From Eubacteriales bacterium (GTDB lineage Bacteria; Bacillota; Clostridia; Oscillospirales; JAAYXM01), in the NCBI GenBank assembly GCA_045544695.1, contig JAZPZP010000022.1, forward strand, positions 1-43,943: a stretch of 43,943 bases of DNA, read 5' to 3'. The position numbers were made by a program, and so were the translations under genes. Within the stretch, counting starts at the first letter, position 1. Each line of letters begins with the position of its first letter. Of the stretch, positions 1 to 17,039 are shown piece by piece. Under the pieces are notes generated by a model. That model was not told the origin of the DNA. It did no database searches and was given only the letters and a program-made list of their open reading frames with translations.

Positions 1-3000
1 AAGGTCTACAAACTTCTTGCCACTATCGCCTCCCGGTGTCACTGTCGGATCTTCCGGTTTCGGATCCTCTTCCTTCGGTTCTTCCGGCTTCGGCTCATCG
101 GAGCCGCCGCCTCCGCCACCGCCGCCGACATCGCCCGGATCACTATCTCCCGGAATTGTGTCGCCGCTTGCAACATTACCGCCGGTTGAGTTTGCTACAT
201 TGATGTCAACATAAAGAGTACTTTCAAGTAATCCGTCGCTTACAACGAATGATACGAAGTTGTCTCCACGGTCTGCTGAGGTCGGTGTCCAGCTAAAGGT
301 CTGGGTTACTTCATCAAATACCATTCCTTCTGCCGAATCCTTCATCTTGAAGTTGAGCGGATTTCCTGTCTGGCTGGTTGCTGTTACTCTGAAGCTTACA
401 GTGTTACCTGCTTCAACCGACTGTTCAGGAACCGCATCAACAATAGGACTTTTCTCATCATATGTCGGGAGCGGAATTTCAAAGCTCATTCCCTCGCCCA
501 TCAAATAATTAAAGCCCTTTGTTTCATCAGTTTCGTCAACATAACTGAGTGTTGTGGTTGTCATACCTACATCGAGTATAACCCTTGTCGGATCATTTGC
601 ATCAACAGTTGCATTTTCAATCTTATAAGTACTGTTTGCCTCTCCATTACTTCTGCTTCCGTTGTCAATATAGATATACTGACCGATTATCTTATTAACA
701 TCAAAGTCACCGTTCATCTTAACCGTGATATTGTTGTCAAGCGTGAGTTCACGGGTAAAGTCAACAACTGTTCCCGTATACTTTGCTGTACCGGTCATTC
801 CTGCAAGGAATGTACCGTCGTTCATATAGGTGTAAATCGGAGCACCGTTCTGAACTCCCGCTTCATAAGTTACAACACCTACAAATGCGCGCATATCGAA
901 TCTGTTATCAACCGTGTAGGTTACGGTATTGTTTGTAGCATAGATGATATAGTCCTCTCTTCCACCTTCAAGAGTTACCTTGACTGCGCGAGATGCATCA
1001 TTCTTGCCTTCGTAACCGGACTTGATTACAACCGGAACTTCCTCTACCGAGAGAATATACGGATTATTCTTATACGGCTGAATTACAGTTGTATAGAGTG
1101 AGTCTAAATCCTTACCCTTCCGACGAGCCATAATCTGCTTGATGAGAGCAGGCGAGTTATTTGACTTTGGTGGACGCGTGTCACCATAAGCAAACTCGGT
1201 AATCTCATTATCTGTATTGAGCATAGTAAGCTTCATATGTAAATCCGGATCCCCCGGAAGCACATTGAAGTAGTCGCGGATTTTAAAGTCGGCGCTTATT
1301 GTCGGCGCGGTCGGATTTGCAGCTCTGTAGATATTCTTAAGCCAGGTAAATCCAACAGGAGATCTGAGTTTTGAGTGCCAATCATTTTCCCACATTTCAT
1401 CTTCGCCGTACGGAATGTCCGGACCTGCGTAAGAAGACTCAACCGGGTTGCCGAATTTATCAGTCGTCATTTTCTGCTGCTCGACCATTGGAATATCAAC
1501 TTCGATTTCATCGCCCTGAGCGTGGAAGTTATAGATATGGTCGTTGCCACCTTTTACACGGAAGAAGTCTACAGCATAGCTTACATCGTCATTATAATCG
1601 ACCTCAACGACTGTTCTTCGGAAGATTTCTGTAGAATCGTAAAGCTCAGGAACATCAACATCCATAACCTTTACCTTGCCCGAATCGTCAAAGTGATACG
1701 GGTCGCCGGAAATAACGCCGTTTTCTGATGCTTCGGTATATGTCTCGCCCTTCTTCTCAACAACGAACACCGTGTTATGAGCCATCGGAGTTGAACTCCA
1801 TGTGATACGGTTACAGTTAACCGACTTATAATCAGGGTTACCGAGGTCCGGCGCCATATTGATACCATATGCAACGAGACCTAAATTGAGGTGACCTGCA
1901 TGACCGTGACCACCGTTGCGGCCGTAATACATCCAGTAGCTTCGCTGAGTATCAAGTGGGTTGTTTGCAACCTTCCACTCACCGTCGCGGGTAATCATAA
2001 GTCCGAATCCGCCAAGGTTTGTGCTTTCAAGCTCAAGACCCTGACCCTTTTCATCAATTACCGCCTGAACCTCATCCTGAATTGCAAATGGGTCACGACT
2101 TGCAACGCCGTAAGACAATCCCGAAAGGTCGCCGTCACAAAGGAGATAAATCATACGCGCGATATTATCCTCACGTATGCCAGCACCCCAGGCTGATGTA
2201 AAGAGGCCTAAGTTTGCTATGTTATCGGGTTTTGCAAAGTAGCCGGTGTCACCGATATTCGGCGTGTAACGGCTTGCCATTGTAAGCTCAGTTGTTGCGA
2301 AAATCATTCTGCGATATTTCGGATGGTTGTAAATATCAGCTCCTGCATAGGTATCTTTGTAACCGTCAAGCACACCTGCGATGTTACCCATGGAGTTAAT
2401 CCAACCGAGGTTATAGCCCGGGGCCGCTTCGTTACCCCAACCGTCACGGTCAACATTGGTTACAAGTGATGAGTTTACATTACCCTTTTCGCCAACAATA
2501 CCTCCACCATTCGAGTTTTTACTCGACTCAAAAATCCAGTCAATCCATTCTTTGCTTTCAGGCATCGTATCCAAAACAACACCGATAGTTGCCATAACGT
2601 GCTGCGGATAACCGAAGTTGCCCCAAATTTCCGTCGTGTGGATACCCTGTCGTATTGCACGGAGAAGTCCGTTATCTGAGTTAAAGCGAATTAAATCAGC
2701 ACTTGTCTTCGGATTTTCAAGGTTATACTTCTTAGCCTTTTCTGAAAGAATCTGAATTACCTTAGGATTCTCCATTGCCGGCCAGAGAGCATCGTAAGAA
2801 TCTGCAAGACGAACCGCCAAGCCATAGTCTGCGATACATCCAAGTACAGTTCCCTTACCTGAACCGCCTGACGATGAAACATACACATATCGCCATTCAG
2901 GATTAAGGTGCATTGTCGGATAAATATCCGCAACGCGGTCTAAAATTACCGCACCGGCGATACCGTATTTCTCCTCACCTGTGTACTTGTATGCTTCTGA

Positions 3001-6000
3001 AAGCGAGAAGAGCGCTTTATTTATAGGACCGCCGGAGTTGTAGTTCCAAGCTGATGTCCACAATGCGTGGTTATATCTCGGAATGTAGCAGTGAACGATT
3101 TTAACTCTGTCGTTCGGAGCAGGAAGATACTTGCCCGAATCATAGCCGAAGCCGTTATCAACACCCCAGTTTGGCTCTTCCTCTGTGTTCTTTTCCGGGT
3201 GAAGAACATTAGTTAAATAACCTGCCTCGCCATTGGCAACAAGTTCTGCATTCCTTTGCTTTGAAAGTTCTTCACTCCAGAGGCCGTGTTCATCCAGACC
3301 GAGCTCGTAGTACTTGCCGAAGTCATTTGATGGGAAGTATCTACGGCATTCTGAACACTGAACTTTCCAAGCTGTCTCAAGTGGATTTATAATAAATCCG
3401 CCACTGACCGCACCGAGGTCGGTCTCGCAATAATAGCAATAGTTGTAATTCGGGTCGCCGTACATCTGCACGCCACGCGGAAGCTCATTCGATGTGATGA
3501 GGTTGCAGATTTCTTCATATTTGTCCACATATAAATCAGCTGCTTTTACCGCATTGTTAAGCGTCGGCGCTGCCCAATCATACTTATCAAAGTTTGCGCG
3601 CATAACTTCAAGAGTCTCGTCTGTCGTTCTTGTTCGACGCGACTTGAGTGTACCCGCAATAACATCGAATGTAGTACTCTTGTTAATTCCCTGAAGCGTT
3701 GCATTAACTGTAATTGTTGCAAAGCCATTTGCGTGTGCGGTAACAGTACCATCTGCACTTACCGTTGCAATCTCCTCATTCGACGAAGAATAAGTATATG
3801 TTGCCTGTTCCGCTTCTGCCGGAACACTCGGAGTTGTGTTTAAAATTCCGCAAGAAGCTCCGAGTGATAAGACATTATTCGTCTTGCCGTTATCAAGCTT
3901 GGATGTCAAGCTATCAAGCGGTTTAGCACCCGATAAATGAAGTGTATTGAGATAGAGCGTTCCTGCCTTACCGGATGTCGGAGCAGGGTCTACCTCGGTA
4001 CACTTAATAATAAAATAATACTCTGTCTGACCGGTAAGTGGGAGAAGACCTAAGTCAACATACTGTAAAGTTCCGAGAGCTGATGACTGAACATCGTAAA
4101 TTGCAGCTGCCGGAGTAGTTGCCATCTTATCCTCAATAGCATCAGGGCTGATGTTGCCCGGGAGGATATAAACCTCTGCCTTCTTAGCATTTGCGCTACC
4201 GCTGTATGTCATTGTACCTGCATAAAGACCCGGAGTAGGTGCTTTAAGTTTAAATACAACATACTGGCCTGCTTTTTCATTTAAAATCTGAAGTGCGCCA
4301 TAGAAAGAGGATACCCAGTTGGTATTCTTTGAGCTATGTTTAACATAAACCCAGTTTGGGTTCTTGCTTTCATTGTAATCCGTAAGAGTTGACGCCATTT
4401 CGCCCGAGCGTGAAAGTCCGCTTATAAAGTCGTAGGTAACGCTGTGTTCAATACCCGGCTGAATCGGGTTTTCAATCTCGGTTAAAACCTCAACTTCTTG
4501 TGAAGCTGTCTTTGTAACGGTATCGAGTGTTACGCTTACGGAAATTAAAGAGTTGCCGCCGGCAACACCGAGCATTGCTCCGGTTGCCTCATCAATTGCA
4601 ACAGCAGCGGTATTACTTGATGAATAAGTAATAGTAGCGCCCGATAAATCGGCATCTGTTCCATCATCCAGCTTACCTGTAACGGTAGCAGTTGCCGCGC
4701 CACCTATTGCAAGCGCTTTAACTACATCAAGCGAAATGCTTTCAAGCTTTGGAATAACGGGAGCCGGCTCATTTCCGTCAAATATGAGCTTGGTTGCGGT
4801 AAGAGTTGCATAACCGTGAGTTGCATCGTCTCCAACACCGTCTGCCTGGAGAACTAAAACATACTCGGTATCTTTGCGAAGCGCAACTTCGCCAAGTGTT
4901 GCGATATTTTCGCCCTCTGCATAAGCAAATGTTCCTGCCGGAGTTGATGATTTAACTAAAGCTTCAATATCCGAAAGCTTTGTATCACCTGCGAAAACAA
5001 AAATCTTGCCATTTTTTGCACCAATATGGTTTTTATATGCAAGCTTAAACTGATATGCGCCCTCATTTCCGCTCTTAAACTTAATCGCACTCCATGCGCC
5101 GTCATCCATACCGATAAAATTAACGGCACCTGCACGAGTTGTCGAGCGACCCGCGAGATTCATATAGTTTCCAAAATATGTCCAACGGGCATTTTTATCA
5201 GCATTATAATCTGTGAGTAAATCAAGATTTTCGCCATCATCTGCAAGGCCTGTCATAAGGTTGATTTCATTCGATGTGCTCTCACCGCCGTAGCTTACAC
5301 AAACTATGTCGCGTGATACAGTCTTTGTAACGCCATCGAGTGTAACGGTTGCCTTGAGTGTTGCACTGCCGTCACTTACTGCTACGAGAGTTCCATCATC
5401 AATAATCTTTAATATGTTCTCATTTGAACTCTTTAAGATAACCTCTGCAAGATTTTTCGCAGAAAGGTCAGCTGAATCACCGTTTTCAAGTGTTGCTGTG
5501 ACAATAGTAGTTGCCGGAGCATTCTTTGAAATGGTATCACTTGATACGATGAGGTTAACCTGGTCAAGCGGAGACGGAGCTTCGCCTATGAGTTCTAAGT
5601 TAGTTAAACTCATACCTGCGTATCCGGTACCCTGTGAGTTTGTATTATACTTAGTCGGAATGAATACAAGAAGCATTTCTGCATCTTCATTATACATATC
5701 AATCTGACCGAGCTTTATTGTGTCGCCTACTACGCCGTCATAGTTGACTATACCAAGCGGCACAGATTCTTTAGCTTTTGCCGCAATCTGCTCTTTCGGA
5801 GTATTTGCCGGAAGAGCATAAATCTTCATCTGGAGCGCACCCACATGGTTTGCCCACTTGAAGTATCCGGTATATCTACCCTGTTTCGGAGCCTTTACAG
5901 TAAACGCGATATATGTATTTTCACTCTTTGTATTCGAGTTAAATCGCATAGCAAGGCCATAGAAGCCCTCACAGCTTATAGCGCCATTCATTGAATGGAA

Positions 6001-7983
6001 CTTCCAATTTGCATTCTTCGCTTCGTTATACTCTGTCAAAAGATCGGTTCTTTCATCGTAAAGACCTGCAACGAAGTCGTATTTTGTATTATTTACCTTA
6101 CCTGCATAAGGAAGAGTATGAATAGCAGTTAAATCAATCGTTTTCTTTAATGTAACTTTACCCAAAGTAACCTTAACTTCAATTGACACAAGACCCTTAT
6201 CAAGTGCGGTAACAACACCGTCTGTCGAAACCTCTGCAGTTTCCGGTGTCTTGCTTGTGTATTCAATTGTTGCAGCACTTAAATCTGCTGCTTCTCCATT
6301 CGCGAGCTTACCTGTAACCGAAAGCTTTGTGGTCTCACCCTTTTCGATTGTATCAAATGAGCTTGAAATGTTAATTTCGGAAAGAGCCTCCGGATTTGCG
6401 CCGTTAAATGATACCGAACGGAAGAACATACCCTGACTGCCGATACCACCGTTTGCCATTTCTTCACTATCGGTATTTAATACCTCCGATGTGATAACAA
6501 GGACTTTCTCCTTGCCCGCATCCTTTGCCTTGACGATATATTCGCCAAGCTTAATGGTTGTGTTTTCATCAGCCTTTTCAACGTTATCAACCATTACGCC
6601 GCTAAAATGCTGACCTGCCTTGCGATTGTTCACCTCGTAAAGCGCAGTTGCATTTGCATCGCAGATATATAAGTCTACCTGCGGAGCAGTGTAGTAATTT
6701 CTATGAGTAAATTCAACGGAATACTTACCTGGCTCGGTCGGGAGCTTAATTGTAAATGTCGCAACATTACGGAAGTCAGGACGACCCATAGAAAGGCGCA
6801 TCCAGCCGTCAAATGCGCATGTGTTGTTCGCATCATACCAATGCTGTCCATTGTATTTCCAGTTCGGGTTGGTTTTCGCATTGTAATTTGCAAATGCACT
6901 CGGCTTTGTGTCCTTGGCAGCAGCAGTGCCGTCCTCAAAGCCATAGCGGAAGTCATATGTTACAGAAGCGTTAACACCCGCCCAATCATTAGTGTCTACA
7001 AGAACTCTGTTAACACAATTAAACTCAATTGTATCGGTCTTGGTAACACCGTCAAGTGTAACGGAGGCCTCTACTTTTCCTGTTCCCTCTGCCTTATATG
7101 TAACCTGATTACCGTCTAAAGTAATAAAGTCGGGAGTAAGGTTCTTGTAAGATATATCCTGTGTTGTAATATTCGCGGTTGCGTTATCGGTCATCTTGCC
7201 AGAAACAGACAACTCCGCAGTATTGTCAACCGGGTTTAAGTCGGTCTTATTTGCCGTAACTTCAATTGATGCAAGAGACGGTGGGGCTGATCCGTCAAAG
7301 ATTATGCTATAAAGATAGGAACCGTAAAGACCTACATTTGTTCCATTTGTTCCGCTGGAATCAGCAGAAGCTATCATAGCAAACTTAACTTCCTTGCCTG
7401 CCATTTCCTCGGTAACCTCAAAAGTGCCAATACGCCAAGTCTGGTCAACGCCCTTTGTACCGCTGCCAATGTAATTTGCACTTGTGGTTACAAGAGATTC
7501 CTTTGTTACAGTTGCATCTTTATCAAAAATAAATGTATCGTACTTATTCGTACCGTATGGCACTTCAGTCTTTACCTTAACAGCATACTTACCCGGAGTC
7601 TGCGGCAAGATAATCTGAAGTGTAAAGAATTGATCTCTTGTTTCCGCACGGTAGAGAAGTCTGTTCCATGTATCAACCGCGAGGTAATTACTATATGTAA
7701 CATAGTCACCCTTTGAATACCAGTTCGGGTTGCCCGAATTTGTGGTACTGTGGTTAATCTTTGTACCGTCGGTAAAAACCTTGTTGAGAGCATCAAACGC
7801 TCTTAAGTCCGGCGCTTTACCTACAGCGTCAACACGCGGGAAAGCATAAGTTGTCGTTGCTGCACTGCCCGCCCACTCTGCTGCCTGACCAAACACAAAA
7901 AGGCCTGTCGGAATAAAACCTACAAGCATTACAAGTGTTATGATAAGCGCTATAATTTTTTTGGATTTAAAAACAGTTTTCAT
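1..7983 (-). CDS. Giant secreted multidomain protein, partial (at least 2661 aa in window; C-terminus runs off the left edge). Order: signal peptide, 5x [unassigned module + Big_2 Ig-like domain], heparinase II/III-like polysaccharide-lyase region, cadherin-like domain, Gly/Pro/Glu/Lys linker
   Basis: Absent from the ORF track because no stop codon lies inside the window. ATG at 7983-7981, with GGAGG at 7990-7994 (6-nt spacer). I read the reverse complement through the whole region. The frame was verified codon by codon at 7983-7861, 5580-5551, 3438-3346, 1920-1882 and 130-1, always with codons ending on multiples of 3. All minus-strand track ORFs in 1-7983 sit in one other frame. Translation starts MKTVFKSKKIIALIITLVMLVGFIPTGLFVFGQAAEW and contains GRNGGHGHAGHLNLGLVAYGINMAPDLGNPDY...MAHNTVFV. 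Confidence 0.9.
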   Translation of the reverse strand, partial: MKTVFKSKKIIALIITLVMLVGFIPTGLFVFGQAAEWAGSAATTTYAFPRVDAVGKAPDLRAFDALNKVFTDGTKINHSTTNSGNPNWYSKGDYVTYSNYLAVDTWNRLLYRAETRDQFFTLQIILPQTPGKYAVKVKTEVPYGTNKYDTFIFDKDATVTKESLVTTSANYIGSGTKGVDQTWRIGTFEVTEEMAGKEVKFAMIASADSSGTNGTNVGLYGSYLYSIIFDGSAPPSLASIEVTANKTDLNPVDNTAELSVSGKMTDNATANITTQDISYKNLTPDFITLDGNQVTYKAEGTGKVEASVTLDGVTKTDTIEFNCVNRVLVDTNDWAGVNASVTYDFRYGFEDGTAAAKDTKPSAFANYNAKTNPNWKYNGQHWYDANNTCAFDGWMRLSMGRPDFRNVATFTIKLPTEPGKYSVEFTHRNYYTAPQVDLYICDANATALYEVNNRKAGQHFSGVMVDNVEKADENTTIKLGEYIVKAKDAGKEKVLVITSEVLNTDSEEMANGGIGSQGMFFRSVSFNGANPEALSEINISSSFDTIEKGETTKLSVTGKLANGEAADLSAATIEYTSKTPETAEVSTDGVVTALDKGLVSIEVKVTLGKVTLKKTIDLTAIHTLPYAGKVNNTKYDFVAGLYDERTDLLTEYNEAKNANWKFHSMNGAISCEGFYGLAMRFNSNTKSENTYIAFTVKAPKQGRYTGYFKWANHVGALQMKIYALPANTPKEQIAAKAKESVPLGIVNYDGVVGDTIKLGQIDMYNEDAEMLLVFIPTKYNTNSQGTGYAGMSLTNLELIGEAPSPLDQVNLIVSSDTISKNAPATTIVTATLENGDSADLSAKNLAEVILKSSNENILKIIDDGTLVAVSDGSATLKATVTLDGVTKTVSRDIVCVSYGGESTSNEINLMTGLADDGENLDLLTDYNADKNARWTYFGNYMNLAGRSTTRAGAVNFIGMDDGAWSAIKFKSGNEGAYQFKLAYKNHIGAKNGKIFVFAGDTKLSDIEALVKSSTPAGTFAYAEGENIATLGEVALRKDTEYVLVLQADGVGDDATHGYATLTATKLIFDGNEPAPVIPKLESISLDVVKALAIGGAATATVTGKLDDGTDADLSGATITYSSSNTAAVAIDEATGAMLGVAGGNSLISVSVTLDTVTKTASQEVEVLTEIENPIQPGIEHSVTYDFISGLSRSGEMASTLTDYNESKNPNWVYVKHSSKNTNWVSSFYGALQILNEKAGQYVVFKLKAPTPGLYAGTMTYSGSANAKKAEVYILPGNISPDAIEDKMATTPAAAIYDVQSSALGTLQYVDLGLLPLTGQTEYYFIIKCTEVDPAPTSGKAGTLYLNTLHLSGAKPLDSLTSKLDNGKTNNVLSLGASCGILNTTPSVPAEAEQATYTYSSSNEEIATVSADGTVTAHANGFATITVNATLQGINKSTTFDVIAGTLKSRRTRTTDETLEVMRANFDKYDWAAPTLNNAVKAADLYVDKYEEICNLITSNELPRGVQMYGDPNYNYCYYCETDLGAVSGGFIINPLETAWKVQCSECRRYFPSNDFGKYYELGLDEHGLWSEELSKQRNAELVANGEAGYLTNVLHPEKNTEEEPNWGVDNGFGYDSGKYLPAPNDRVKIVHCYIPRYNHALWTSAWNYNSGGPINKALFSLSEAYKYTGEEKYGIAGAVILDRVADIYPTMHLNPEWRYVYVSSSGGSGKGTVLGCIADYGLAVRLADSYDALWPAMENPKVIQILSEKAKKYNLENPKTSADLIRFNSDNGLLRAIRQGIHTTEIWGNFGYPQHVMATIGVVLDTMPESKEWIDWIFESSKNSNGGGIVGEKGNVNSSLVTNVDRDGWGNEAAPGYNLGWINSMGNIAGVLDGYKDTYAGADIYNHPKYRRMIFATTELTMASRYTPNIGDTGYFAKPDNIANLGLFTSAWGAGIREDNIARMIYLLCDGDLSGLSYGVASRDPFAIQDEVQAVIDEKGQGLELESTNLGGFGLMITRDGEWKVANNPLDTQRSYWMYYGRNGGHGHAGHLNLGLVAYGINMAPDLGNPDYKSVNCNRITWSSTPMAHNTVFVVEKKGETYTEASENGVISGDPYHFDDSGKVKVMDVDVPELYDSTEIFRRTVVEVDYNDDVSYAVDFFRVKGGNDHIYNFHAQGDEIEVDIPMVEQQKMTTDKFGNPVESSYAGPDIPYGEDEMWENDWHSKLRSPVGFTWLKNIYRAANPTAPTISADFKIRDYFNVLPGDPDLHMKLTMLNTDNEITEFAYGDTRPPKSNNSPALIKQIMARRKGKDLDSLYTTVIQPYKNNPYILSVEEVPVVIKSGYEGKNDASRAVKVTLEGGREDYIIYATNNTVTYTVDNRFDMRAFVGVVTYEAGVQNGAPIYTYMNDGTFLAGMTGTAKYTGTVVDFTRELTLDNNITVKMNGDFDVNKIIGQYIYIDNGSRSNGEANSTYKIENATVDANDPTRVILDVGMTTTTLSYVDETDETKGFNYLMGEGMSFEIPLPTYDEKSPIVDAVPEQSVEAGNTVSFRVTATSQTGNPLNFKMKDSAEGMVFDEVTQTFSWTPTSADRGDNFVSFVVSDGLLESTLYVDINVANSTGGNVASGDTIPGDSDPGDVGGGGGGGGSDEPKPEEPKEEDPKPEDPTVTPGGDSGKKFVDL
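196..447 (-). other. Cadherin-like / dystroglycan-type 'putative Ig' domain near the C-terminal end
   Basis: PIVDAVPEQSVEAGNTVSFRVTATSQTGNPLNFKMKDSAEGMVFDEVTQTFSWTPTSADRGDNFVSFVVSDG follows the typical F-x-W-x-P...G-x-x-x-V-x-V-x-V-S-D-G pattern. It is followed by eight Gly codons (103-126) and SDEPKPEEPKEEDPKPEDP. Confidence 0.5.
446..3651 (-). other. Heparinase II/III-like (alpha/alpha-toroid + beta-sandwich) polysaccharide-lyase region of the giant protein
   Basis: GGFGLMITRDGEW...GRNGGHGHAGHLNLGLVAYGINMAPDLGNPDY...STPMAHNTVFVVEKKGE (nt about 1768-1960) matches the conserved GHGH-x-D/H...D-x-G...AHNT core of the heparinase II/III family as I remember it. An upstream helical region starts at DETLEVMRANFDKYDWAAPTLNNAVKAADLY. 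No HMM search was possible. Confidence 0.65.
3652..7881 (-). repeat. Five tandem protein-level units, each an unassigned ~180-210-aa module followed by a ~85-90-aa Big_2-like Ig domain
   Basis: Approximate borders (nt): module1 7285-7881 / Big_2 7020-7284; module2 6391-7019 / Big_2 6121-6390; module3 5581-6120 / Big_2 5296-5580; module4 4750-5295 / Big_2 4483-4749; module5 3925-4482 / Big_2 3652-3924. Recurrent module signatures: FANYNAKTNPNWKY / LTEYNEAKNANWKF / LTDYNADKNARWTY / LTDYNESKNPNWVY (degenerate NSGNPNWYS in module 1). A second signature is F-x-h-K-x-P-x-x-G-x-Y (FTIKLPTEPGKYSV, FTVKAPKQGRYTG, FKLKAPTPGLYAG). Big_2-like stretches look like TTKLSVTGKLANGEAADLSAATIEYTSKTPETAEVSTDGVVTALDKGLVSIEVKV. 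The units are divergent at DNA level. Confidence 0.7.
7882..7983 (-). other. Sec-type signal peptide of the giant protein (residues 1-34, by eye)
   Basis: Lys-rich n-region (MKTVFKSKK), hydrophobic core IIALIITLVMLVGFIPTGLFVF, and a small-residue site GQA|AEW. No predictor was run. Confidence 0.6.
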
Positions 7984-8116
7984 ATTGCCCCTCCATTTCT
8001 TTTTGAAAGCTATGTTAAATTACCCCTTATGCTAAGCATATCAAAATATTTTTTTATTTACTTTGCATATTCTATTTTTTTATTGATGAATTTCATTGAA
8101 TAAGCCTCTTTTTTAT

Positions 8117-8144
8117 ATTATATCATAAATACAAATATAATCAA
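8117..8144 (-). promoter_or_regulatory. SigA-type promoter of the giant gene
   Basis: Minus strand reads TTGATT (8144-8139), 16-nt spacer, TGaTATAAT (extended -10; TATAAT at 8122-8117). It lies about 125 nt upstream of ATG 7983. Confidence 0.55.
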
Positions 8145-8178
8145 CAAAAAACCGCCTCTCAAAACTTGAAAGACGGTT
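8145..8178 (-). terminator. Intrinsic terminator-like hairpin between carB and the giant-gene promoter
   Basis: Arms 8150-8157 / 8171-8178. The minus-sense RNA AACCGUCU...AGGCGGUU pairs over 8 bp including one G-U, followed by UUUU. In plus sense the same stem has a C-A mismatch but an 8-U tail, so it could act in both directions. Confidence 0.5.
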
Positions 8179-8321
8179 TTTTTTAAATTTATTTTCTTAG
8201 GTTTAGTCCTCTCAGGGTGCCGCAAAACGCTTGCGGCACCGTCAAGAGGCTTGAGAAAGGAAAATAAAAGAGTGGGATAGCAAAATAAAATAATGAAACA
8301 AAAATGCAACTTTTTAACTCT
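8145..8321 (-). ncRNA. Candidate ~175-nt structured non-coding transcript, or leader of the giant gene; family unknown
   Basis: Bounded by the promoter at 8328-8356 and the terminator at 8145-8178. It contains an ~81-nt extended hairpin (8188-8268): a perfect 10-bp core GGTGCCGCAA/TTGCGGCACC (8216-8225 / 8231-8240, loop AACGC), then CCTCT/AGAGG (8208-8212 / 8245-8249), then an 11-bp AU stem with one bulge (8188-8198 / 8258-8268). There is no ATG with an RBS inside. Confidence 0.3.
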
Positions 8322-8327
8322 GTTAAA

Positions 8328-8356
8328 AATATACCACAATCCTCCAAAAATTGCAA
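8328..8356 (-). promoter_or_regulatory. SigA-type promoter candidate for the non-coding unit
   Basis: Minus strand reads TTGCAA (8356-8351), 17-nt spacer, TGgTATATT (TATATT at 8333-8328). Confidence 0.4.
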
Positions 8357-8440
8357 TATCTTTTTGGAAAATTGGGACGATATTTTTATTTTAAGGGAAG
8401 ATGCTTCAAAATAATACTGATTTTAGCAAATTAGAACACA

Positions 8441-8473
8441 ACAAGCGGTTGAGAAATGCTCTCAACCGCTTGT
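8441..8473 (-). terminator. carB terminator hairpin
   Basis: Perfect 14-bp stem ACAAGCGGTTGAGA / TCTCAACCGCTTGT (8441-8454 / 8460-8473) with a 5-nt loop, 4 nt after the carB stop (8478-8480). The U-tract on the minus strand is weak (UGUGUUCU). Confidence 0.7.
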
Positions 8474-8477
8474 ATTA

Positions 8478-11400
8478 TTACTCTGATATTTCGTGGATAT
8501 CGTAGAGCGCAACGCTCTTTTCATTGAATCCGCTCGCGAGTGCATCAGCAACTGCGTTTGCAGTATCAAGTGCCGTGAGACACGGGATACGGCGCGCGCT
8601 TGCGCGACGACGGATTTTAACATCGTCCATTGCCGGGTTTCTACCGGTTGCGGATGTTGAAATTACATAGTGAACAACGCCGCTGTCAAGTAATGTCATT
8701 GTGTTGCTCTCAGGATTTGCGTGAATCTTATCAACTTCCTTGACTTCAAGACCGCATTCGCGGAGCTTAACGGCAGTTCCGGATGTTGCATAGAGTTCAA
8801 ATCCGAGCTTTGCATACTTCTTTGCGATAGCGCCGATTTCGCTCTTGTCCTGATCACGAACCGTGATAAATACTCCACCTTCGACCTCCATTGTATACCC
8901 TGCAGCGACAAGGCCCTTGAATATCGCTTCGCGAACCGTTTCGCCAACACCTAAAACCTCACCGGTGGACTTCATTTCCGGGCCAAGCTGAGTATCAACA
9001 TTTGTCAACTTCTCAAACGAGAATACCGGAACCTTAACGGCAACGGTGTTTGCTGCCGGATGGAGACCGTAGGTGTAACCTAAGTCAGAGAGCTTCTCGC
9101 CAAGACTTGAACGAACTGCGAGCTCGCACATCGGAATACCTGTAACCTTACTGATATACGGAACGGTACGGGATGCACGCGGGTTAACCTCGATTACGTA
9201 AACCTCTCCGTCCATAATAATATACTGGATGTTTACTAGGCCTCTTGCGTTAAGACCTACGCTGAGTGCGCGAGTAACTTCAACAACGCGCTCGGTAAGC
9301 TCCGGAGTAAGGCTCTGAGCCGGGTAAATTGCGATACTGTCACCTGAGTGGACACCCGTTCTCTCAACATGTTCCATAATACCCGGGATCAAAATATCAT
9401 CGCCGTCGCAAATTGCGTCGACCTCAATTTCGGTACCGCTTAAATATTTATCAATAAGAACCGGGTTGTCGTTCTTTGTTGCAAGGATGATTGCCATATA
9501 CTCGCGAATGTCGTTATCAGAATATGCGATAATCATATTCTGACCGCCAAGTACATAAGACGGGCGCATAAGAACCGGATATCCGAGCGCCTTTGCAGCG
9601 GTGAGTGCACCGTCGCAATCTAAAACGGTCTTGCCCTTCGGGCGCTTAATCTCTAAGCTCTCGAGGAGTGCATCAAAACGCTCTCTGTCTTCCGCCATAT
9701 CAATGCTGTCAGCCGAGCTTCCGACAATCTTGATTCCGTTTTTGTCAAGGAAAGATGTAAGCTTGATAGCGGTCTGACCACCGAATGCAACAATAACGCC
9801 TTCCGGCTTCTCCTGCTTGATGATATTAAGAACATCCTCAGGAGTGAGCGGCTCGAAGTAGAGTCTGTCTGCTGTATCAAAGTCGGTTGAAACGGTTTCC
9901 GGGTTATTGTTTATGATGATAACCTCATAGCCCATACGCTGAAGTGACCATACGCAGTGAACACTTGCATAGTCAAACTCGATACCCTGACCGATACGGA
10001 TAGGACCTGAACCAAGTACCAACATTCTCGGCTTTTTCATCTCGTCTGTAAACGGCTTAGCTTCATTGTCACCATCATCGTAAGTAGCATAGAAATACGG
10101 AGTCTGCGCGCCGAACTCTGCCGCACAGGTATCAACCATCTTATAGGTCGGAGCGCGCTCGTATTTAATCGGATTTTCAGATAACTGATAGAGGGAAGCG
10201 TCGGTATAGCCGAGGCGCTTGCCGCGGAGATACTGAGCTTCACTAATAGGTCTGCCCTTGATTTCCTTCTCGTAATTTACCATATTGAGGAGTTTATACA
10301 AGAACCACTCGTCAATCATCGTGATCTCGTGGATTTCATCAACAGAAATTCCGCGATGTAATGCCTCATAAACAACGAAGAGTCGCTCATCGGTACAAGC
10401 GTGAAGCTTTGCGCGAATGTCCTCGGTTGAGAGGTACTCAAGCTTCGGCATACGCAAGGTTGAAAGCGAAATTTCAGCACCGCGTACCGCCTTCATAATG
10501 GCCATTTCAAATGTATCGGCAATAGTCATAACCTCGCCGGTAGCCTTCATCTGTGTACCGAGCTCACGCTTAGCGTAAACGAACTTTTCAAAAGGCCACT
10601 TCGGGAACTTAACTGCAACATAGTCAATTGTCGGCTCATTTGCCGCAAAGGTCTTACCTGTTACAGCGTTCGGGATTTCATCGAGAGTGTAACCGATAGC
10701 AACCTTTGTTGCAACCTTAGCAATCGGATAACCTGTCGCCTTACTTGCAAGAGCGCTTGAACGCGAAACGCGCGGGTTAACCTCGATTACCGCATATTCA
10801 AATGTCTCCGGATTGAGCGCGAACTGACAGTTACAGCCACCCTCAACGCCGAGCGCCTCAACAATGTCGAGTGCTGCATTGCGGAGCATCTGGAATTCCT
10901 TATCAGCGAGAGATACTGCCGGAGCAATTACGATACTGTCACCTGTATGAACACCGACCGGGTCAAAGTTTTCCATCGAGCAGATGGTAATTGCATTGCC
11001 CGCCCTGTCACGCATTGCCTCAAACTCAATTTCCTTCCAGCCGGAAATACACTTTTCAACAAGTATCTGACGAATCGGAGAAGCATCAAGACCCTCACGC
11101 GCAATCTCATATAATTCTGCGCGGTCAGAAGCGATACCGCCGCCGCTGCCGCCAAGTGTAAATGCCGGGCGAATGATTACCGGGTAATCAATAATTTCTG
11201 CAAACTCAATTGCAGAGTCAATATCTTCAACAACCTTAGACGGAATACACGGCTGACCGATGGATTCCATCGTGTCCTTAAACATCTGTCTGTCTTCGGC
11301 TTTGTCGATAGTTTCCGGAGAGGCGCCAAGGAGACGAACTCCCTTCTCTTCAAGATATCCCTCTTTTGCAAGCTGCATACAGAGGTTTAAGCCTGTCTGG

Positions 11401-11675
11401 CCGCCAAGACCCGAGAGAATACTGTCCGGCTTTTCGATCTCAATAATTCTTTTAACCGTTGTGAGTGTAAGCGGCTCGATATAAATTTTATCAGCCATAG
11501 CCTGATCGGTCATAATAGTAGCAGGGTTTGAGTTAATTAAAACAACCTCAAGACCATCCTCACGAAGCGCGCGGAGCGCCTGAGTTCCCGCATAGTCAAA
11601 CTCAGCTGCCTGTCCGATAACGATAGGACCGGAGCCGATAACCATTACCTTTTTAATAGATTCATACTTAGGCAT
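8478..11675 (-). CDS. carB: Carbamoyl-phosphate synthase large subunit
   Basis: 1065 aa from ATG 11675, with GGAGG at 11685-11689 (9-nt spacer). The track start at 11684 is a GTG only 1 nt from that RBS. Two ATP-grasp halves: MPKYESIKKVMVIGSGPIVIGQAAEFDYAG and RMLVLGSGPIRIGQGIEFDY. MGS-like C-terminal domain. Confidence 0.95.
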   Translation of the reverse strand: MPKYESIKKVMVIGSGPIVIGQAAEFDYAGTQALRALREDGLEVVLINSNPATIMTDQAMADKIYIEPLTLTTVKRIIEIEKPDSILSGLGGQTGLNLCMQLAKEGYLEEKGVRLLGASPETIDKAEDRQMFKDTMESIGQPCIPSKVVEDIDSAIEFAEIIDYPVIIRPAFTLGGSGGGIASDRAELYEIAREGLDASPIRQILVEKCISGWKEIEFEAMRDRAGNAITICSMENFDPVGVHTGDSIVIAPAVSLADKEFQMLRNAALDIVEALGVEGGCNCQFALNPETFEYAVIEVNPRVSRSSALASKATGYPIAKVATKVAIGYTLDEIPNAVTGKTFAANEPTIDYVAVKFPKWPFEKFVYAKRELGTQMKATGEVMTIADTFEMAIMKAVRGAEISLSTLRMPKLEYLSTEDIRAKLHACTDERLFVVYEALHRGISVDEIHEITMIDEWFLYKLLNMVNYEKEIKGRPISEAQYLRGKRLGYTDASLYQLSENPIKYERAPTYKMVDTCAAEFGAQTPYFYATYDDGDNEAKPFTDEMKKPRMLVLGSGPIRIGQGIEFDYASVHCVWSLQRMGYEVIIINNNPETVSTDFDTADRLYFEPLTPEDVLNIIKQEKPEGVIVAFGGQTAIKLTSFLDKNGIKIVGSSADSIDMAEDRERFDALLESLEIKRPKGKTVLDCDGALTAAKALGYPVLMRPSYVLGGQNMIIAYSDNDIREYMAIILATKNDNPVLIDKYLSGTEIEVDAICDGDDILIPGIMEHVERTGVHSGDSIAIYPAQSLTPELTERVVEVTRALSVGLNARGLVNIQYIIMDGEVYVIEVNPRASRTVPYISKVTGIPMCELAVRSSLGEKLSDLGYTYGLHPAANTVAVKVPVFSFEKLTNVDTQLGPEMKSTGEVLGVGETVREAIFKGLVAAGYTMEVEGGVFITVRDQDKSEIGAIAKKYAKLGFELYATSGTAVKLRECGLEVKEVDKIHANPESNTMTLLDSGVVHYVISTSATGRNPAMDDVKIRRRASARRIPCLTALDTANAVADALASGFNEKSVALYDIHEISE

Positions 11676-12744
11676 TTTTTGCACCCTCCATCATACCGAT
11701 AAAACGCTCGTATAACATATTCGCACCGTTTGCGCTGCGGCAAGCCGACGGCTCAAACTGAACTGAAAATGCATTGACTCCGACATACTCAAGTCCCTCA
11801 CAGGTCTTATCGTTCGTGTTTACAAATGACACCTTTGCAATGCTTTCATCAATTCCAACCACAGTATAGCCGTGATTCTGTGTGCTTATATAAACTCTTC
11901 CGTTTTCTGCACATCTTACCGGGTGGTTTGCACCGCGATGACCGTGCGGTAATTTTTCAATTGAGAAGCCGTTTGCAAGAGCTAAAAGCTGATGGCCTAA
12001 ACGAATACCGAAGGTCGGGATGTTCTTCTCTTTAAGTACACGAAGAGTATTTATCGTTTCAACACATTCGCTCGGGTCGCCCGGGCCGTTTGAGAGCATA
12101 ATTCCGTCCGGATTAACAGCTAAAATCTCGTGTGCCGGAGCATTTGCCGGAAATACATGAACCTCACAGCCGTAGCCGTTGAGTGTTTTGAGTAAGCTTT
12201 CCTTAAGGCCTAGGTCGATAAGTGCAATTCTGTACTTTGCATCATTGCAAGGTGCTACATATTTAACACGGGTTGTAACATTCTTAACCGCATCGCGTAC
12301 ACGGTAATCAGCTATTGCCTTGTGGTCAACCTTGCTTAAATCGGTAGTAATCATACCATTCATCGTTCCGTTATCGCGAAGCGTTTTGACAAGAGTTCTC
12401 GTATCAATCTCGCAAAGACCTACGATATTTTTCTCCTTAAAGAATGTATCTATATCCTTCTCGCAGCGGAAATTTGACGGCTCCTTGCACCAGTGCTTAA
12501 CGATATAAGCCTCAGGCACGATCTTGCTGCCTTCCAAATCCTCCGTGATAACGCCGTAATTTCCTATAAGCGGAAAAGAATGAACCGGAGTCTGACCGTA
12601 AAAGCTCTTATCGGTCATTGCTTCAAGATATCCTGTCATACCCGTAGTGAAAACAATTTCGGAAATAACAGTGCCCTCAGCGCCAAAGGACTCGCCTTCA
12701 AACACATCGCCGTTCTGGAGTATTAAATATGCCTTCTTACTCAT
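11668..12744 (-). CDS. carA: Carbamoyl-phosphate synthase small (glutamine amidotransferase) subunit
   Basis: 358 aa from ATG 12744, with AAGGAGG at 12752-12758 (7-nt spacer). Class-I GATase motifs are present (GIRLGHQLL, nucleophile-elbow region; HGHRGANHPV). It overlaps the carB start by 8 nt (ATGCCTAA). Confidence 0.93.
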   Translation of the reverse strand: MSKKAYLILQNGDVFEGESFGAEGTVISEIVFTTGMTGYLEAMTDKSFYGQTPVHSFPLIGNYGVITEDLEGSKIVPEAYIVKHWCKEPSNFRCEKDIDTFFKEKNIVGLCEIDTRTLVKTLRDNGTMNGMITTDLSKVDHKAIADYRVRDAVKNVTTRVKYVAPCNDAKYRIALIDLGLKESLLKTLNGYGCEVHVFPANAPAHEILAVNPDGIMLSNGPGDPSECVETINTLRVLKEKNIPTFGIRLGHQLLALANGFSIEKLPHGHRGANHPVRCAENGRVYISTQNHGYTVVGIDESIAKVSFVNTNDKTCEGLEYVGVNAFSVQFEPSACRSANGANMLYERFIGMMEGAKNA

Positions 12745-12769
12745 CACACATCCTCCTTATTCTGTCTAG

Positions 12770-12830
12770 AAAAAACGCATATTAAATAGCGCACGTTGTA
12801 AAATAACACTGCCGCAATTTAATATGCGCT
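12770..12830 (-). promoter_or_regulatory. Terminator-like hairpin in the carA leader (possible attenuator)
   Basis: In minus-sense RNA, CGCAUAUUAAAU (12828-12817) pairs with AUUUAAUAUGCG (12787-12776). The stem is extendable to 14 bp with AG/UU. The loop is ~29 nt and the stem is followed directly by UUUUUU (12775-12770). The hairpin lies between the promoter (12853-12881) and the RBS (12752-12758). Confidence 0.45.
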
Positions 12831-12852
12831 AACTCTTAAATTTTCTTTTTAC

Positions 12853-12881
12853 ATTATACGCCTATAAGCGGAGTTTGTCAA
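12853..12881 (-). promoter_or_regulatory. Consensus SigA promoter of carAB
   Basis: Minus strand reads TTGACA (12881-12876), exactly 17 nt, TATAAT (12858-12853). Both hexamers are perfect. Confidence 0.75.
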
Positions 12882-13042
12882 TGTTTTTTGGCGATTTTCC
12901 GCGGTTTTTGAGTTATTATAATATTAATAGAATATTTATTCTAAACGGCTTCTTTATTTCAAGCGGTTTATTTTGTTTTTGTTTTTCTTTTATGCACAAA
13001 ATATACAAAACTTTTTTCACTGCGGTTTGTCCGCCATATATT

Positions 13043-15250
13043 TTAATTATGCATAAAACTCGGTATATCGTTGCATAATATGCACTTTATACTTTCTGCA
13101 AACTCACCATTCAACAGTTTTTCAGCAATTTTTACCGTTATTTCTTCGTCAATTATGCCTCTGAGCGCTCTCGCTCCGCTCTTTTTCTCCTCAGCGCGGC
13201 GCGCAATCAGCTCTATAACCTCATCTTCAATTTGTATATTTATTCCTTTTTCACAAGCTCGCGCTGTGATCTCAGCAACCATCTTACGGGCAATTTGTGA
13301 AAACTCTTTCGTTTTGAGAGCGTTGAACACAACAATCTCATCAATTCTGTTCACAAGCTCAGGCCGCAGGATTTTTTGAGCCTCTTTAACGGCTTTTGCC
13401 TTTTTATCCAAATAACTTCCGACAAAGCCAATTCCCGCTCGTTCACCCAAATGCTCAGAGCCTATATTCGATGTCATAATAACAATCGTATTTTTAAAGT
13501 CCGCTATCTTTCCCAAAGAACCGGTAAGCTTTCCGTCCTCTAAAATCTGAAGCAGAACATTCAAAACCTCTGGATGCGCCTTTTCTATCTCATCAAATAA
13601 AACAACCGAATACGGCTTTTGACGCACTTTATCCACAAGAAGCCCTCCCCCTTCATAGCCGACATATCCTGGCGGCGCTCCGATGAGCTTACTTACCGCG
13701 TGTCTTTCCATATACTCGGACATATCGATGCGTATAAATGAATTTTCCGAGCCGAAGAGCTCCTTTGCAAGGCTTCTTGCAAGCTCGGTTTTTCCAACGC
13801 CACTCTCTCCCATGAATAAAAATGTACCGTTTGGCCGGTCAGGATCAGATAATCCCATTCTTCCCTTTATCACTGCGTGGCAAAGCGAGCTTATCGCCTC
13901 GTCTTGTCCCACAACTCGCCTGCATAGCTTATCCTTTAAATTTATAAGCTTTTCTTTTTCATCGGAATCCATTGCATCCACCGGAATCCCCGTTCTGTCT
14001 GCAATTGCTCTTTTTATATAGTCCTCACTCAATGTGTGCGTATCAAAGCTTGCGCGACTTGCAGCTTCGTCGAGTATATCAATCGCCTTGTCAGGCAAAA
14101 AACGATCATTTATATATCTTACCGACAAATCAATTGCACTCTTTAATATCTCATCACTTATAAGAACCTCGTGGTGACGCTCGTAAAGCCCCCTTATCCC
14201 GCGAAGAATCGCAAATGTTTCGTCTTTACCCGGTTCCTCTACCTTTATTGGCTGAAGGCGTCTCTCGAGCGCCGCATCTTTTTCGATATATTTTCGATAT
14301 TCATCATAAGTCGTAGCACCGATAAGCTTAATTTCAGCCCTTGCGAGCGCCGGTTTTAAAATATTCGCCGCGTCAATTGCACCCTCCGCCGCACCGGCAC
14401 CGACTATCGTGTGAATTTCGTCAATAAATAAAATAACATTCCCTATCTCACGCACCTCGCGCAGAATCTTTTTAACGCGATCTTCAAACTCTCCGCGGTA
14501 TTTTGTTCCCGCAATTACCGACGGCATATCAAGCGTTATAATTCTTGCATTGTGTAATGCACTCGGAACCTCACCCGACACTATTTTAAGTGCAAGTCCT
14601 TCCACTATTGCAGTTTTTCCGACTCCCGGCTCGCCGATAAGACAGGGGTTATTCTTCCCCCTGCGACTGAGCGTGCAGATAACATTCAAAATTTCCTTAT
14701 CTCTTCCGATTACCGGATCTAAGCTACCTATTCTCGCGGCCTGTGTGAGGTCTCTGCCAAATTGGCGAATCAATTTTTCGCTGCCGCTTTTTTCACGAGT
14801 TGCCCGCGTTGACTGTGCGGAATTTGCCGCAAGATCATTATATAATTTCCCCGGGTCAACTCCAAAGGAGAGAATAAGACGCGTCGCAATGCTTTCCCCC
14901 TCGCTCAGAATTCCCATTAAAATATGCTCGGTACTTACGCTGTCACTTCCCGATCGCACTGCCTCGGCGTATGCAGCGGAAATTACCCTTTTCGCACGCG
15001 GAGTAAGTCCATGCGGAGTCACATTCTGCACACTTCCCATACCGATTGTTTCACACAATTTGCGTGCGAGCGGCTCGCGGCTTATTCCGCGTTTTAACAG
15101 AAGCTTTGCCGCTGCACCGTCTCCCTGCGCCACCAGACCGTAGAGTAAGTGCTCCGATCCAACATAAGTATGTCCTAAAGTTGATGCACATTCATGTGCA
15201 AGGCGAAGACTGTGTTCACTTCCCGCGGTAAACTTGTTATCATCAAACAT
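13043..15250 (-). CDS. clpC: Class-I Clp/Hsp100 AAA+ unfoldase, ClpC/ClpA family, with ClpA-like architecture (no middle domain)
   Basis: 735 aa from ATG 15250, with GAGGTGG at 15255-15261; the track TTG at 15253 is too close to the RBS. Two Clp_N repeats, Walker A GEPGVGKT (D1) and GESGVGKT (D2), and the ClpP-docking tripeptide in AGIGFVG. Only ~55 residues separate LPDKAID from VVGQDEA. Confidence 0.88.
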   Translation of the reverse strand: MFDDNKFTAGSEHSLRLAHECASTLGHTYVGSEHLLYGLVAQGDGAAAKLLLKRGISREPLARKLCETIGMGSVQNVTPHGLTPRAKRVISAAYAEAVRSGSDSVSTEHILMGILSEGESIATRLILSFGVDPGKLYNDLAANSAQSTRATREKSGSEKLIRQFGRDLTQAARIGSLDPVIGRDKEILNVICTLSRRGKNNPCLIGEPGVGKTAIVEGLALKIVSGEVPSALHNARIITLDMPSVIAGTKYRGEFEDRVKKILREVREIGNVILFIDEIHTIVGAGAAEGAIDAANILKPALARAEIKLIGATTYDEYRKYIEKDAALERRLQPIKVEEPGKDETFAILRGIRGLYERHHEVLISDEILKSAIDLSVRYINDRFLPDKAIDILDEAASRASFDTHTLSEDYIKRAIADRTGIPVDAMDSDEKEKLINLKDKLCRRVVGQDEAISSLCHAVIKGRMGLSDPDRPNGTFLFMGESGVGKTELARSLAKELFGSENSFIRIDMSEYMERHAVSKLIGAPPGYVGYEGGGLLVDKVRQKPYSVVLFDEIEKAHPEVLNVLLQILEDGKLTGSLGKIADFKNTIVIMTSNIGSEHLGERAGIGFVGSYLDKKAKAVKEAQKILRPELVNRIDEIVVFNALKTKEFSQIARKMVAEITARACEKGINIQIEDEVIELIARRAEEKKSGARALRGIIDEEITVKIAEKLLNGEFAESIKCILCNDIPSFMHN

Positions 15251-15314
15251 CAAACCACCTCGCCTTTAGTATCGCCAAACTTTATAGATTTTTATAAAAA
15301 TTTTTAAATTATTA

Positions 15315-15342
15315 TTGATTTTTTTAAAAGCCGTGGTACAAT
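15315..15342 (+). promoter_or_regulatory. SigA-type promoter of the ferredoxin gene
   Basis: TTGATT (15315-15320), 16-nt spacer, TGgTACAAT (TACAAT at 15337-15342). Confidence 0.5.
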
Positions 15343-15350
15343 AGTGTTAA

Positions 15351-15545
<195 letters not shown>

Positions 15546-15564
15546 TCGGTTGTTTAAAGCACAA

Positions 15565-15597
15565 AAAAGTGCCTCGCGTTCAGCGTGGCACTTTTTT
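15565..15597 (+). terminator. Ferredoxin intrinsic terminator
   Basis: AAAAGTGCC (15565-15573) pairs with GGCACTTTT (15587-15595), with an inner CGC/GCG extension, followed by a T-run. Confidence 0.75.
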
Positions 15598-15617
15598 ATT
15601 TCAGAGGTGAAATTTTT

Positions 15618-16334
15618 ATGGTTGACGAACTCGGAATATCCGGCTTTAAATTAAAGCAAAGCGACGAGTTTTTAAAACTTGGTACTGATTCGATGTTGCT
15701 CTCCCATTTTGCAAAAATCCGCAAATACGATAATGTCTGCGATTTAGGGTGTGGAAACGGCGCAATATCAATTCTTCTCTGTGCGCGACACGAAAACATC
15801 TCCGTAACCGGCATCGAAATACTTAAAGGATCTTACGAGCTTGCGTGTGAAAATGTTGAGCTCAACAACTTATCAGACCGTATGCAGGTTATACACGGCG
15901 ATATCGTTAAAATCGAAGAATATTTAAAGCCGGAGAGCTTTAACGCGGTCGTTTCAAATCCTCCGTATTTAAAGCGTGACGGCGGTCTTCATACAGAAAA
16001 CCCGAACTTGCTCGCCGCCCGTATGGAAATAGACAGCACGATAGACGATATCTGCCGTGCAGCGGCGTATCTTTTAAAATATCAGGGCAGCTTTTCAATT
16101 GTATATCGTCCCGAAAGGCTTGCAACGCTCATCTCGTCGCTTTATAAATACAATCTGATTCCCAAGCGGATGCGCCTTGTCCAGAATAACTTAAAAACCG
16201 AGCCGTCGCTCGTTCTTTTAGAGGCGAGGAAGCACGGCGGTGAAGGTATGAAAGTGCTTCCGACACTCTTTATCCGCGACGAAGAAGGGCGAGAGACAAA
16301 AGAAGTTTCAGAAATTTATCAAAGAAAAGCTTGA
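15618..16334 (+). CDS. Class I SAM-dependent methyltransferase, tRNA (adenine-N6) YfiC/TrmN6-like
   Basis: 238 aa from ATG 15618, with GAGGTGA at 15604-15610. SAM motif VCDLGCGNGAI and catalytic NPPY (VVSNPPYL). The track start at 15585 lies inside the ferredoxin terminator. Confidence 0.8.
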   Translation: MVDELGISGFKLKQSDEFLKLGTDSMLLSHFAKIRKYDNVCDLGCGNGAISILLCARHENISVTGIEILKGSYELACENVELNNLSDRMQVIHGDIVKIEEYLKPESFNAVVSNPPYLKRDGGLHTENPNLLAARMEIDSTIDDICRAAAYLLKYQGSFSIVYRPERLATLISSLYKYNLIPKRMRLVQNNLKTEPSLVLLEARKHGGEGMKVLPTLFIRDEEGRETKEVSEIYQRKA

Positions 16335-16367
16335 ACTTTTGTTTTATATATGTTAAACTCATATTAT
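16331..16367 (+). promoter_or_regulatory. lexA promoter region with a Cheo/SOS-box-like site
   Basis: GAACTTTTGTTT (16333-16344) fits the Gram-positive GAAC-N4-GTTC box with one mismatch. It overlaps two alternative promoters: TTGAAC(16331)-N17-TGtTAAACT(16354-16359) or TTGTTT(16339)-N17-TATTAT(16362-16367). Confidence 0.5.
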
Positions 16368-16390
16368 AAAAGTTCAGGAGGTTTTATGCT

Positions 16391-16993: not shown

Positions 16994-17004
16994 AGTAAAA
17001 AATA

Positions 17005-17034: not shown

Positions 17035-17039
17035 ACTTT

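Follow-up and report, generated by a model that had tools for sequence, protein, structure and literature searches.

Five tandem copies of an unclassified jelly-roll module in the N-terminal arm of a lyase-like protein from a Eubacteriales bacterium

The module-bearing gene and its five repeats

The analyzed window is the whole 43,943-base NCBI contig JAZPZP010000022.1 (GenBank assembly GCA_045544695.1) of a Eubacteriales bacterium. A single minus-strand open frame begins with an ATG codon at position 7983 and runs off the window start, with 2661 codons read. Because the window is the complete contig and the frame reaches the contig end, the gene is truncated after these 2661 codons. A GGAGG ribosome-binding site is located 7 nucleotides (nt) 5' of the start codon, and the N-terminus of the protein, amino acids (aa) 1-33, resembles a signal peptide. 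The protein, of at least 2661 aa, is regarded as secreted and is probably anchored at the cell surface. Its residues 35-1444, corresponding exactly to window positions 3652-7881, consist of five units, each including a module of approximately 185-200 aa and an immunoglobulin-like (Ig) domain of the Big_2 type of approximately 90 aa. A lyase-like body follows these units (Table 1).

The five copies of the module (M1-M5) share 19-30% pairwise identity. In BLASTP comparisons, they were joined into a chain with E-values of 6e-13 for M1-M2, 9e-10 for M2-M3, 2e-16 for M3-M4, 6e-16 for M3-M5, and 3e-16 for M4-M5. Additionally, a hidden Markov model (HMM) of the family, built mostly from other proteins, scored M1-M5 with E-values from 1.7e-11 to 2.3e-37. 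Because this external model recognizes every copy, homology of the repeats is far beyond chance. Thus, the five tandem module-plus-Ig units, initially proposed in a first-pass annotation made from the sequence alone, were confirmed by both the BLASTP chain and the family HMM. The five copies are ancient, diverged paralogues.

The same annotation described three signatures of the module, which are retained to different degrees. The first of them, LTDYNxxKNxNWxY, is found in exact form in M2-M5 and in a degenerate form in M1. M3 and M5 match the second, FxhKxPxxGxY, exactly, and M1, M2, and M4 have close variants of it. The third, (V/I)Y(I/A)LP, is also exact in M3 and M5 and is represented by variants in the other copies.

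The proposed pairing of each module with a Big_2 domain holds in the strict sense for two units. The gathering score of Pfam Big_2 (PF02368), 22.8 bits, is exceeded by spacers 2 and 5 alone. Spacer 3 reached 13.5 bits with this model, spacer 1 matched Big-like only (19.4 bits), and spacer 4 had no Pfam match. All five spacers, being 20-34% identical to one another, align mutually, and an HMM derived from spacers 2 and 5 recovered the remaining three with E-values from 1.5e-6 to 5e-4. Thus, spacers 1, 3, and 4 are Ig domains by homology to spacers 2 and 5.

A scan with the single protein revealed one orthologous locus, JAZNOR010000001.1 ("MAG: Eubacteriales bacterium", MAG being a metagenome-assembled genome), with 86% identity. 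This orthologue keeps all five units in collinear order. The ratio of nonsynonymous to synonymous substitution rates (dN/dS) between the two genes is 0.10-0.20 for the modules, 0.04-0.34 for the spacers, and 0.04-0.06 for the body. Since the ratio is 0.10-0.20 in every module, the five copies are held by selection, less tightly than the catalytic part of the protein.

Separately, synonymous divergence from the orthologue is 0.05-0.15 over the M3-Ig3-M4 segment (window 4759-6120) versus 0.4-1.6 elsewhere in the gene. This segment looks like a patch of recent recombination, rather than a region of stronger constraint.

Table 1. Features of the module-bearing gene and its upstream region (window coordinates)
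Feature	Position	Strand	Residues (aa)	Remarks
He_PIG-like Ig domain and Gly/Pro-rich linker	1..483	-	2501-2661	gene cut by contig end, anchor region missing
Lyase-like body	484..3651	-	1445-2500	related to PL40, PL17, PL12, and heparinase II/III
Ig spacer 5	3652..3912	-	1358-1444	Big_2, 39.4 bits, above gathering score
Module 5	3913..4476	-	1170-1357	AlphaFold2 (AF2) with 55 sequences, pLDDT 90.5, pTM 0.89; beta-jelly-roll with one inserted helix
Ig spacer 4	4477..4758	-	1076-1169	no Pfam match, homologous to the other spacers
Module 4	4759..5295	-	897-1075	
Ig spacer 3	5296..5568	-	806-896	Big_2-like, below Pfam threshold
Module 3	5569..6120	-	622-805	AF2 with five sequences, pLDDT 76, pTM 0.79
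Ig spacer 2	6121..6387	-	533-621	Big_2, 35.3 bits, above gathering score
Module 2	6388..6996	-	330-532	
Ig spacer 1	6997..7278	-	236-329	Big_2-like, below Pfam threshold
Module 1	7279..7884	-	34-235	most divergent copy, signature 1 degenerate
Start codon, GGAGG, and signal-peptide-like N-terminus	7885..7983	-	1-33	read from sequence
Promoter-like site	8117..8144	-		TTGATT, 16-nt spacer, TG-extended TATAAT; consensus scan only

Database identity, distribution, and fold of the module

In Pfam, the five window copies yielded only noise at E ≤ 10, with no match to CBM_35 (PF16990) or CBM_6 (PF03422), two families of carbohydrate-binding modules (CBMs). No match for the module copies was found in NCBIfam, and a profile of the five copies had no meaningful match among the PDB sequences. 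Further comparisons used 55 diverse members, drawn from a larger set sharing less than 40% pairwise identity. Two of these 55 members matched CBM_35 (best E-value 5.5e-4), one matched CBM_6 (4.8e-3), and one matched Golvesin_C, all of them far below the gathering scores. The best matches of the 55-member profile among the PDB sequences were CBM35-bearing chains, namely 5x7o (0.0049), 2bgo (0.024), and 3wnl (0.034), and no chain of CBM84 (7ehg, 6f2p) or CBM86 was found at E ≤ 10. In the alignment with 5x7o, the family motif W-x-A-F-K-I-x-V-P-x-x-G-x-Y coincides with the CBM35 repeat of this GH31 protein, and its central hairpin reads xAFxIxVPxxGxY.

In five module-bearing relatives (P0091, P0094, P0135, P0166, and P0175), the annotations of a newer Pfam release leave the modules uncovered and include only Ig families and Hepar_II_III_C. 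PF26918 was considered as a new Pfam model of the module and rejected, being Ig_Eae and not tracking the presence of the module. Thus, the module is unassigned within Pfam, its newer release, NCBIfam, and the PDB sequences, as the first-pass annotation held, and only the mentioned sub-threshold CBM_35 and CBM_6 signals were found in place of a confident Pfam match. The term "new family" is used here relative to Pfam, NCBIfam, and PDB, the CAZy/dbCAN models being outside the comparison.

A word-index homologue search with the five-module alignment returned no relatives. An exhaustive hmmsearch over 1.84 billion cluster representatives then yielded 249 proteins at E ≤ 1e-3; of these, 91 pass a cutoff of 1e-10 and 7 pass 1e-30. 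A few matches in the list are repeat proteins aligned over a piece of about 30 residues only, and these are not members. Because the exhaustive search found these relatives, the empty result of the first search reflects a limit of the index. Thus, the module recurs in metagenomic proteins as a real family.

Iteration over the best 150 proteins revealed approximately 460 copies of the module in 146 proteins, with 1-7 copies per protein, located back-to-back or approximately 80-100 aa apart. Almost all of the carriers are large metagenomic proteins of Clostridia. All named relatives are MAG proteins of Oscillospiraceae, Clostridiales, or Clostridia, and the ten family representatives looked up are metagenomic singletons; the taxonomy of the family therefore relies on a few NCBI names together with the title of the orthologue contig. 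Within the family, the window copies form an outlying branch, and no BLAST-detectable relative of M1 was found among the representatives beyond the window protein itself.

Architectures of the carriers were defined by clustering of the sequence left after masking the modules. The commonest partner, found in 71 of the 151 proteins, is a lyase-like body of approximately 1150 aa as in the window protein, and 44 proteins align over most of this body. The second architecture, found in 36 proteins, includes a beta-propeller-like body, helical repeats, and a C-terminal transmembrane anchor. Proteins of this class (P0003, P0004, P0012, and 33 others) are 2100-2400 aa long, with approximately 650 aa in the beta-propeller-like body. 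The third architecture, with a tail of approximately 240 aa, was found in 14 proteins. At E ≤ 0.001, no Pfam match was found in any of the three sampled beta-propeller-class proteins (P0003, P0004, and P0012) or the two sampled tail-class proteins, and the sixth sampled protein, P0023, matched only Pfam repeat and Ig families. Many carriers have C-terminal transmembrane or SLH anchors. Because the module heads proteins without a recognizable carbohydrate-active domain, it is not tied to lyases.

One related locus (ENA ERZ28756970 contig_22755, 1-18911) encodes the module-bearing protein P0135 (1518 aa). Its neighbors include a 1630-aa paralogue, GH20, two SBP_bac_1 (sugar-binding) genes, an AraC regulator, an IS110 transposase, and SLH-anchored Hepar_II_III_C genes. 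This gene content fits a role in glycan utilization. P0135 is directly followed by an 813-aa Hepar_II_III_C+SLH gene, and a frameshift may have divided a single gene into these two.

Structural models were obtained with AlphaFold2 for M3, using the five copies as the alignment, and for M5, using the 55-member alignment. The M5 model has a predicted local distance difference test score (pLDDT) of 90.5 and a predicted template-modeling score (pTM) of 0.89, and thus the module has an autonomous fold. It is modeled as an eleven-strand beta-sandwich (beta-jelly-roll) in which a single helix follows the YILP strand as an insertion and a long N-terminal loop extension bears LTDYNxxKNxNW. In the Foldseek comparison of this model with PDB, bacterial CBMs rank at the top with a probability of 1.0. 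The best neighbor is a Paenibacillus xanthan lyase (6f2p, E-value 1.7e-6). For the module MiXBM (7ehg), the template-modeling score (TM-score) is 0.53-0.56 when normalized by the query and 0.71-0.74 when normalized by the target. In a review, the modules by which PXL and MXL bind xanthan are placed in CBM84 (PMC10881899). Other neighbors include CBM35 (2w1w, 2w47), CBM6 (2cdp, 2cdo, 1gmm), CBM86 (6sgf), and CBM32; the listed CBM35 and CBM6 structures have target-normalized TM-scores of 0.58-0.71 and a Foldseek probability of 1.0. The query-normalized TM-scores for the CBM6/35/84 neighbors are 0.45-0.56, and the module is approximately 50 residues longer than these.

MAM and ephrin-receptor domains were the top neighbors of the five-sequence model (pLDDT 76) and were rejected in this position, CBMs being dominant with the better model.

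As modeled, the module has a galactose-binding-like jelly-roll of the CBM6/CBM35/CBM84 type. Because of this fold, together with the sub-threshold CBM_35 and CBM_6 signals, the module is probably a new family, though not a new kind of domain, inside the known superfamily. Thus, the initial proposal of a new binding-module family stands with regard to a family without a name, the fold being that of known CBMs.

Lyase-like body and genomic surroundings

With the Pfam model Hepar_II_III_C, the window protein alone scored 22.5 bits against a gathering score of 24, and its relatives scored 34-39 bits. A single-sequence search against PDB returned no match. A profile of 23 body sequences matched the polysaccharide lyase (PL) structures of Uly1040 (9vtk, 6e-25), AlgL17 of PL17 (9irq, 1e-23), and Alg17c (4nei, 1.6e-18). 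Weaker matches were heparinase III (6e-9) and PL15 (7.6e-5). The 9VTK enzyme is the PL40 ulvan lyase Uly1040 (PMC12915356). In the alignment, the window protein retains the PL17-type tyrosine (PGY) together with GHGH, PDLG, and HNT, and the metal ligands of PL17 (His/Asp/His) are conserved in the body as well. Thus, these PL40 and PL17 matches support the initial annotation that placed the modules upstream of a lyase.

Two CxxC knuckles, CYYC...CSEC, were found at window positions 3346-3438 (aa 1516-1546), and they are conserved in the 23 relatives as GCPxCG...CPxCG. The PL17 and PL40 structures do not align over this region. The conserved knuckles suggest a zinc-ribbon-like insert.

The C-terminal end of the protein is missing in both orthologues. 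Both genes are truncated at contig ends soon after the Gly/Pro-rich linker (window 1-123 and orthologue positions 17700-17823) GGGGGGGSDEPKPEEPKEEDPKPEDP. This coincidence suggests that a repetitive or low-complexity C-terminal region breaks both assemblies.

The upstream neighbors of the gene are housekeeping genes, namely carAB, clpC, and lexA. The gap between carB and the module-bearing gene is 494 nt long and contains two terminator-like hairpins, at 8473-8441 and 8182-8146 of the minus strand. The promoter-like site listed in Table 1 is located downstream of the second hairpin. With these two hairpins and a TG-extended promoter-like site in front of it, the gene is probably transcribed alone, as its own transcription unit. 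The stretch with these hairpins (window 8146-8477, minus strand) also contains, between them, a promoter-like site at 8356-8328 and a GC-rich hairpin at approximately 8240-8215. A short transcript of its own or a leader could originate here. No match was found for the whole window in Rfam.

Further along the contig, some 9-14 kb from the module-bearing gene (window 17040-22771), a gene cluster encodes a GFO/IDH/MocA oxidoreductase, an AraC regulator, and a sugar-type periplasmic binding protein. The same cluster includes a gene for a DUF1574/GDSL-like protein overlapping that for an MBOAT O-acyltransferase, and this pair resembles polysaccharide O-acylation systems.

Proposed role of the arm and comparison with known systems

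The five units form the N-terminal arm of a secreted polysaccharide-lyase-like enzyme of an uncultured gut-type Eubacteriales (Clostridia) bacterium. With moderate confidence, we propose that this multivalent, Ig-spaced arm of unclassified CBM-like modules directs the surface lyase to a glycan polymer, which is probably acidic. The modules would act as non-catalytic CBMs, with rigid Ig spacers holding them apart. The arm would bind the polymer with avidity and pass it on to the PL17/PL40/PL12-like catalytic body. The five copies may also differ in their specificity.

Several observations weigh against this proposal. The same fold is found in protein binders, and MAM, ephrin-receptor, and Cry domain III structures are among the Foldseek matches. 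Additionally, most of the positions conserved across the family are located in beta strands and thus mark the core rather than a binding site. Finally, the module is not confined to carbohydrate-active enzymes, since it heads the 36 beta-propeller-like and 14 small-tail proteins.

In another reading, the modules would serve for adhesion or as a scaffold, binding a protein or cell-surface target or forming a rigid stalk off the cell wall, with no recognition of a substrate glycan. This explanation agrees with the likeness of the jelly-roll to MAM, ephrin-receptor ligand-binding, and Cry toxin domain III structures, with the lack of any Pfam match, and so of a recognized carbohydrate-active domain, in the five sampled beta-propeller and small-tail carriers, and with the adhesin-like C-terminal transmembrane or SLH anchors on many carriers. 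We nevertheless consider it unlikely. The best-ranked neighbors of the high-confidence model are nearly all bacterial CBMs, CBM_35 and CBM_6 are the sole sub-threshold sequence signals, the lyase-like body is the commonest partner of the module (71 of 151 proteins), and the function of a stalk is already supplied by the Ig spacers.

Alternatively, the module could be a very divergent member of CBM35, CBM6, or another CAZy CBM family, beyond the reach of HMMER-level searches. The CBM_35 matches of two and the CBM_6 match of one of the 55 members point in this direction, as do the CBM35-bearing chains 5x7o, 2bgo, and 3wnl as the best PDB-sequence matches, with the hairpin motif xAFxIxVPxxGxY in common. 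However, none of the five window copies matches CBM_35 or CBM_6 at E ≤ 10, and all matches of the members are far below the gathering scores. The module is also approximately 50 residues longer than CBM6, CBM35, and CBM84, with query-normalized TM-scores of only 0.45-0.56, and the family profile finds no CBM84 or CBM86 sequence in PDB at E ≤ 10. Therefore, as judged from Pfam and the PDB, this alternative appears rather improbable. A merely compositional or chance similarity of the repeats, for which the identity of only 19% between some copies might speak, is excluded by pairwise E-values down to 1e-16, external HMM E-values down to 1e-37, the 249 external relatives, the confident autonomous fold, and purifying selection.

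The proposal of a glycan-targeting arm can be extended, although only tentatively and with considerable doubt. In this extended form, the module would found a new CBM family confined to uncultured Clostridia (Oscillospiraceae/Eubacteriales), the LTDYNxxKNxNW loop would be a new type of acidic-glycan site, the five copies would recognize different epitopes, and the module would be a general targeting device on giant surface proteins, such as those of the beta-propeller class.

Approximately 1000 residues of the window protein are now without annotation, as are approximately 460 copies of the module spread over no fewer than 146 large proteins from metagenomes. Definition of the family would annotate a number of giant surface proteins from gut-type Clostridia not yet in culture; some of these proteins (all three scanned proteins of the beta-propeller class) have no recognizable domain. 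If binding is true, the module would add a CBM family to CAZy and would provide a handle on the substrate of a deep-branching group of PL17/PL40/PL12-like lyases. New CBM families with the CBM6/35 fold are described regularly, and tandem CBM-plus-Ig arms on polysaccharide-degrading enzymes of Gram-positive bacteria are a familiar design, so the arm is no conceptual surprise.

The individual parts of the protein can be compared with known systems. The Ig spacers are similar to the Big_2 (PF02368) spacers of multimodular Gram-positive surface enzymes, with an Ig domain of approximately 90 aa after each module. In contrast to these, spacers 1, 3, and 4 have diverged too far to reach the Pfam threshold and were placed via spacers 2 and 5. 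The body is related to PL17 (Alg17c, 4NEI; AlgL17, 9IRQ), PL40 (Uly1040, 9VTK), and PL12 heparinase III, with profile E-values from 6e-25 to 6e-8, and its relatives are annotated as the heparinase II/III family. Like PL17, it has the catalytic tyrosine region and the His/Asp/His metal ligands in the alignment; unlike PL17, PL40, and PL12, it has two extra CxxC knuckles in its N-terminal part.

The module has the beta-jelly-roll fold in common with CBM35 and CBM6 (PF16990, PF03422; 2W1W, 2BGO, 2CDP). Its xAFxIxVPxxGxY hairpin is a weak echo of the CBM35 motif F-x-V-x-A-P-x-A-G-x-Y (E-values from 5e-4 to 0.03), whereas no family member reaches the gathering score of either family and none of the five window copies matches them. 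The closest structural neighbors belong to CBM84 (MiXBM, 7EHG; PXL, 6F2P), with Foldseek E-values from 1.7e-6 to 1.5e-5. As in CBM84, a jelly-roll module, predicted here to be non-catalytic, is attached to a polysaccharide lyase of a Gram-positive bacterium (PMC10881899). In contrast to CBM84, with which it has 13-19% identity in the structural alignments, the window module is approximately 50 aa longer, includes the N-terminal loop extension and the inserted helix, is present in five copies with Ig spacing, and has a PL17/PL40/PL12-like rather than a PL8 catalytic partner.

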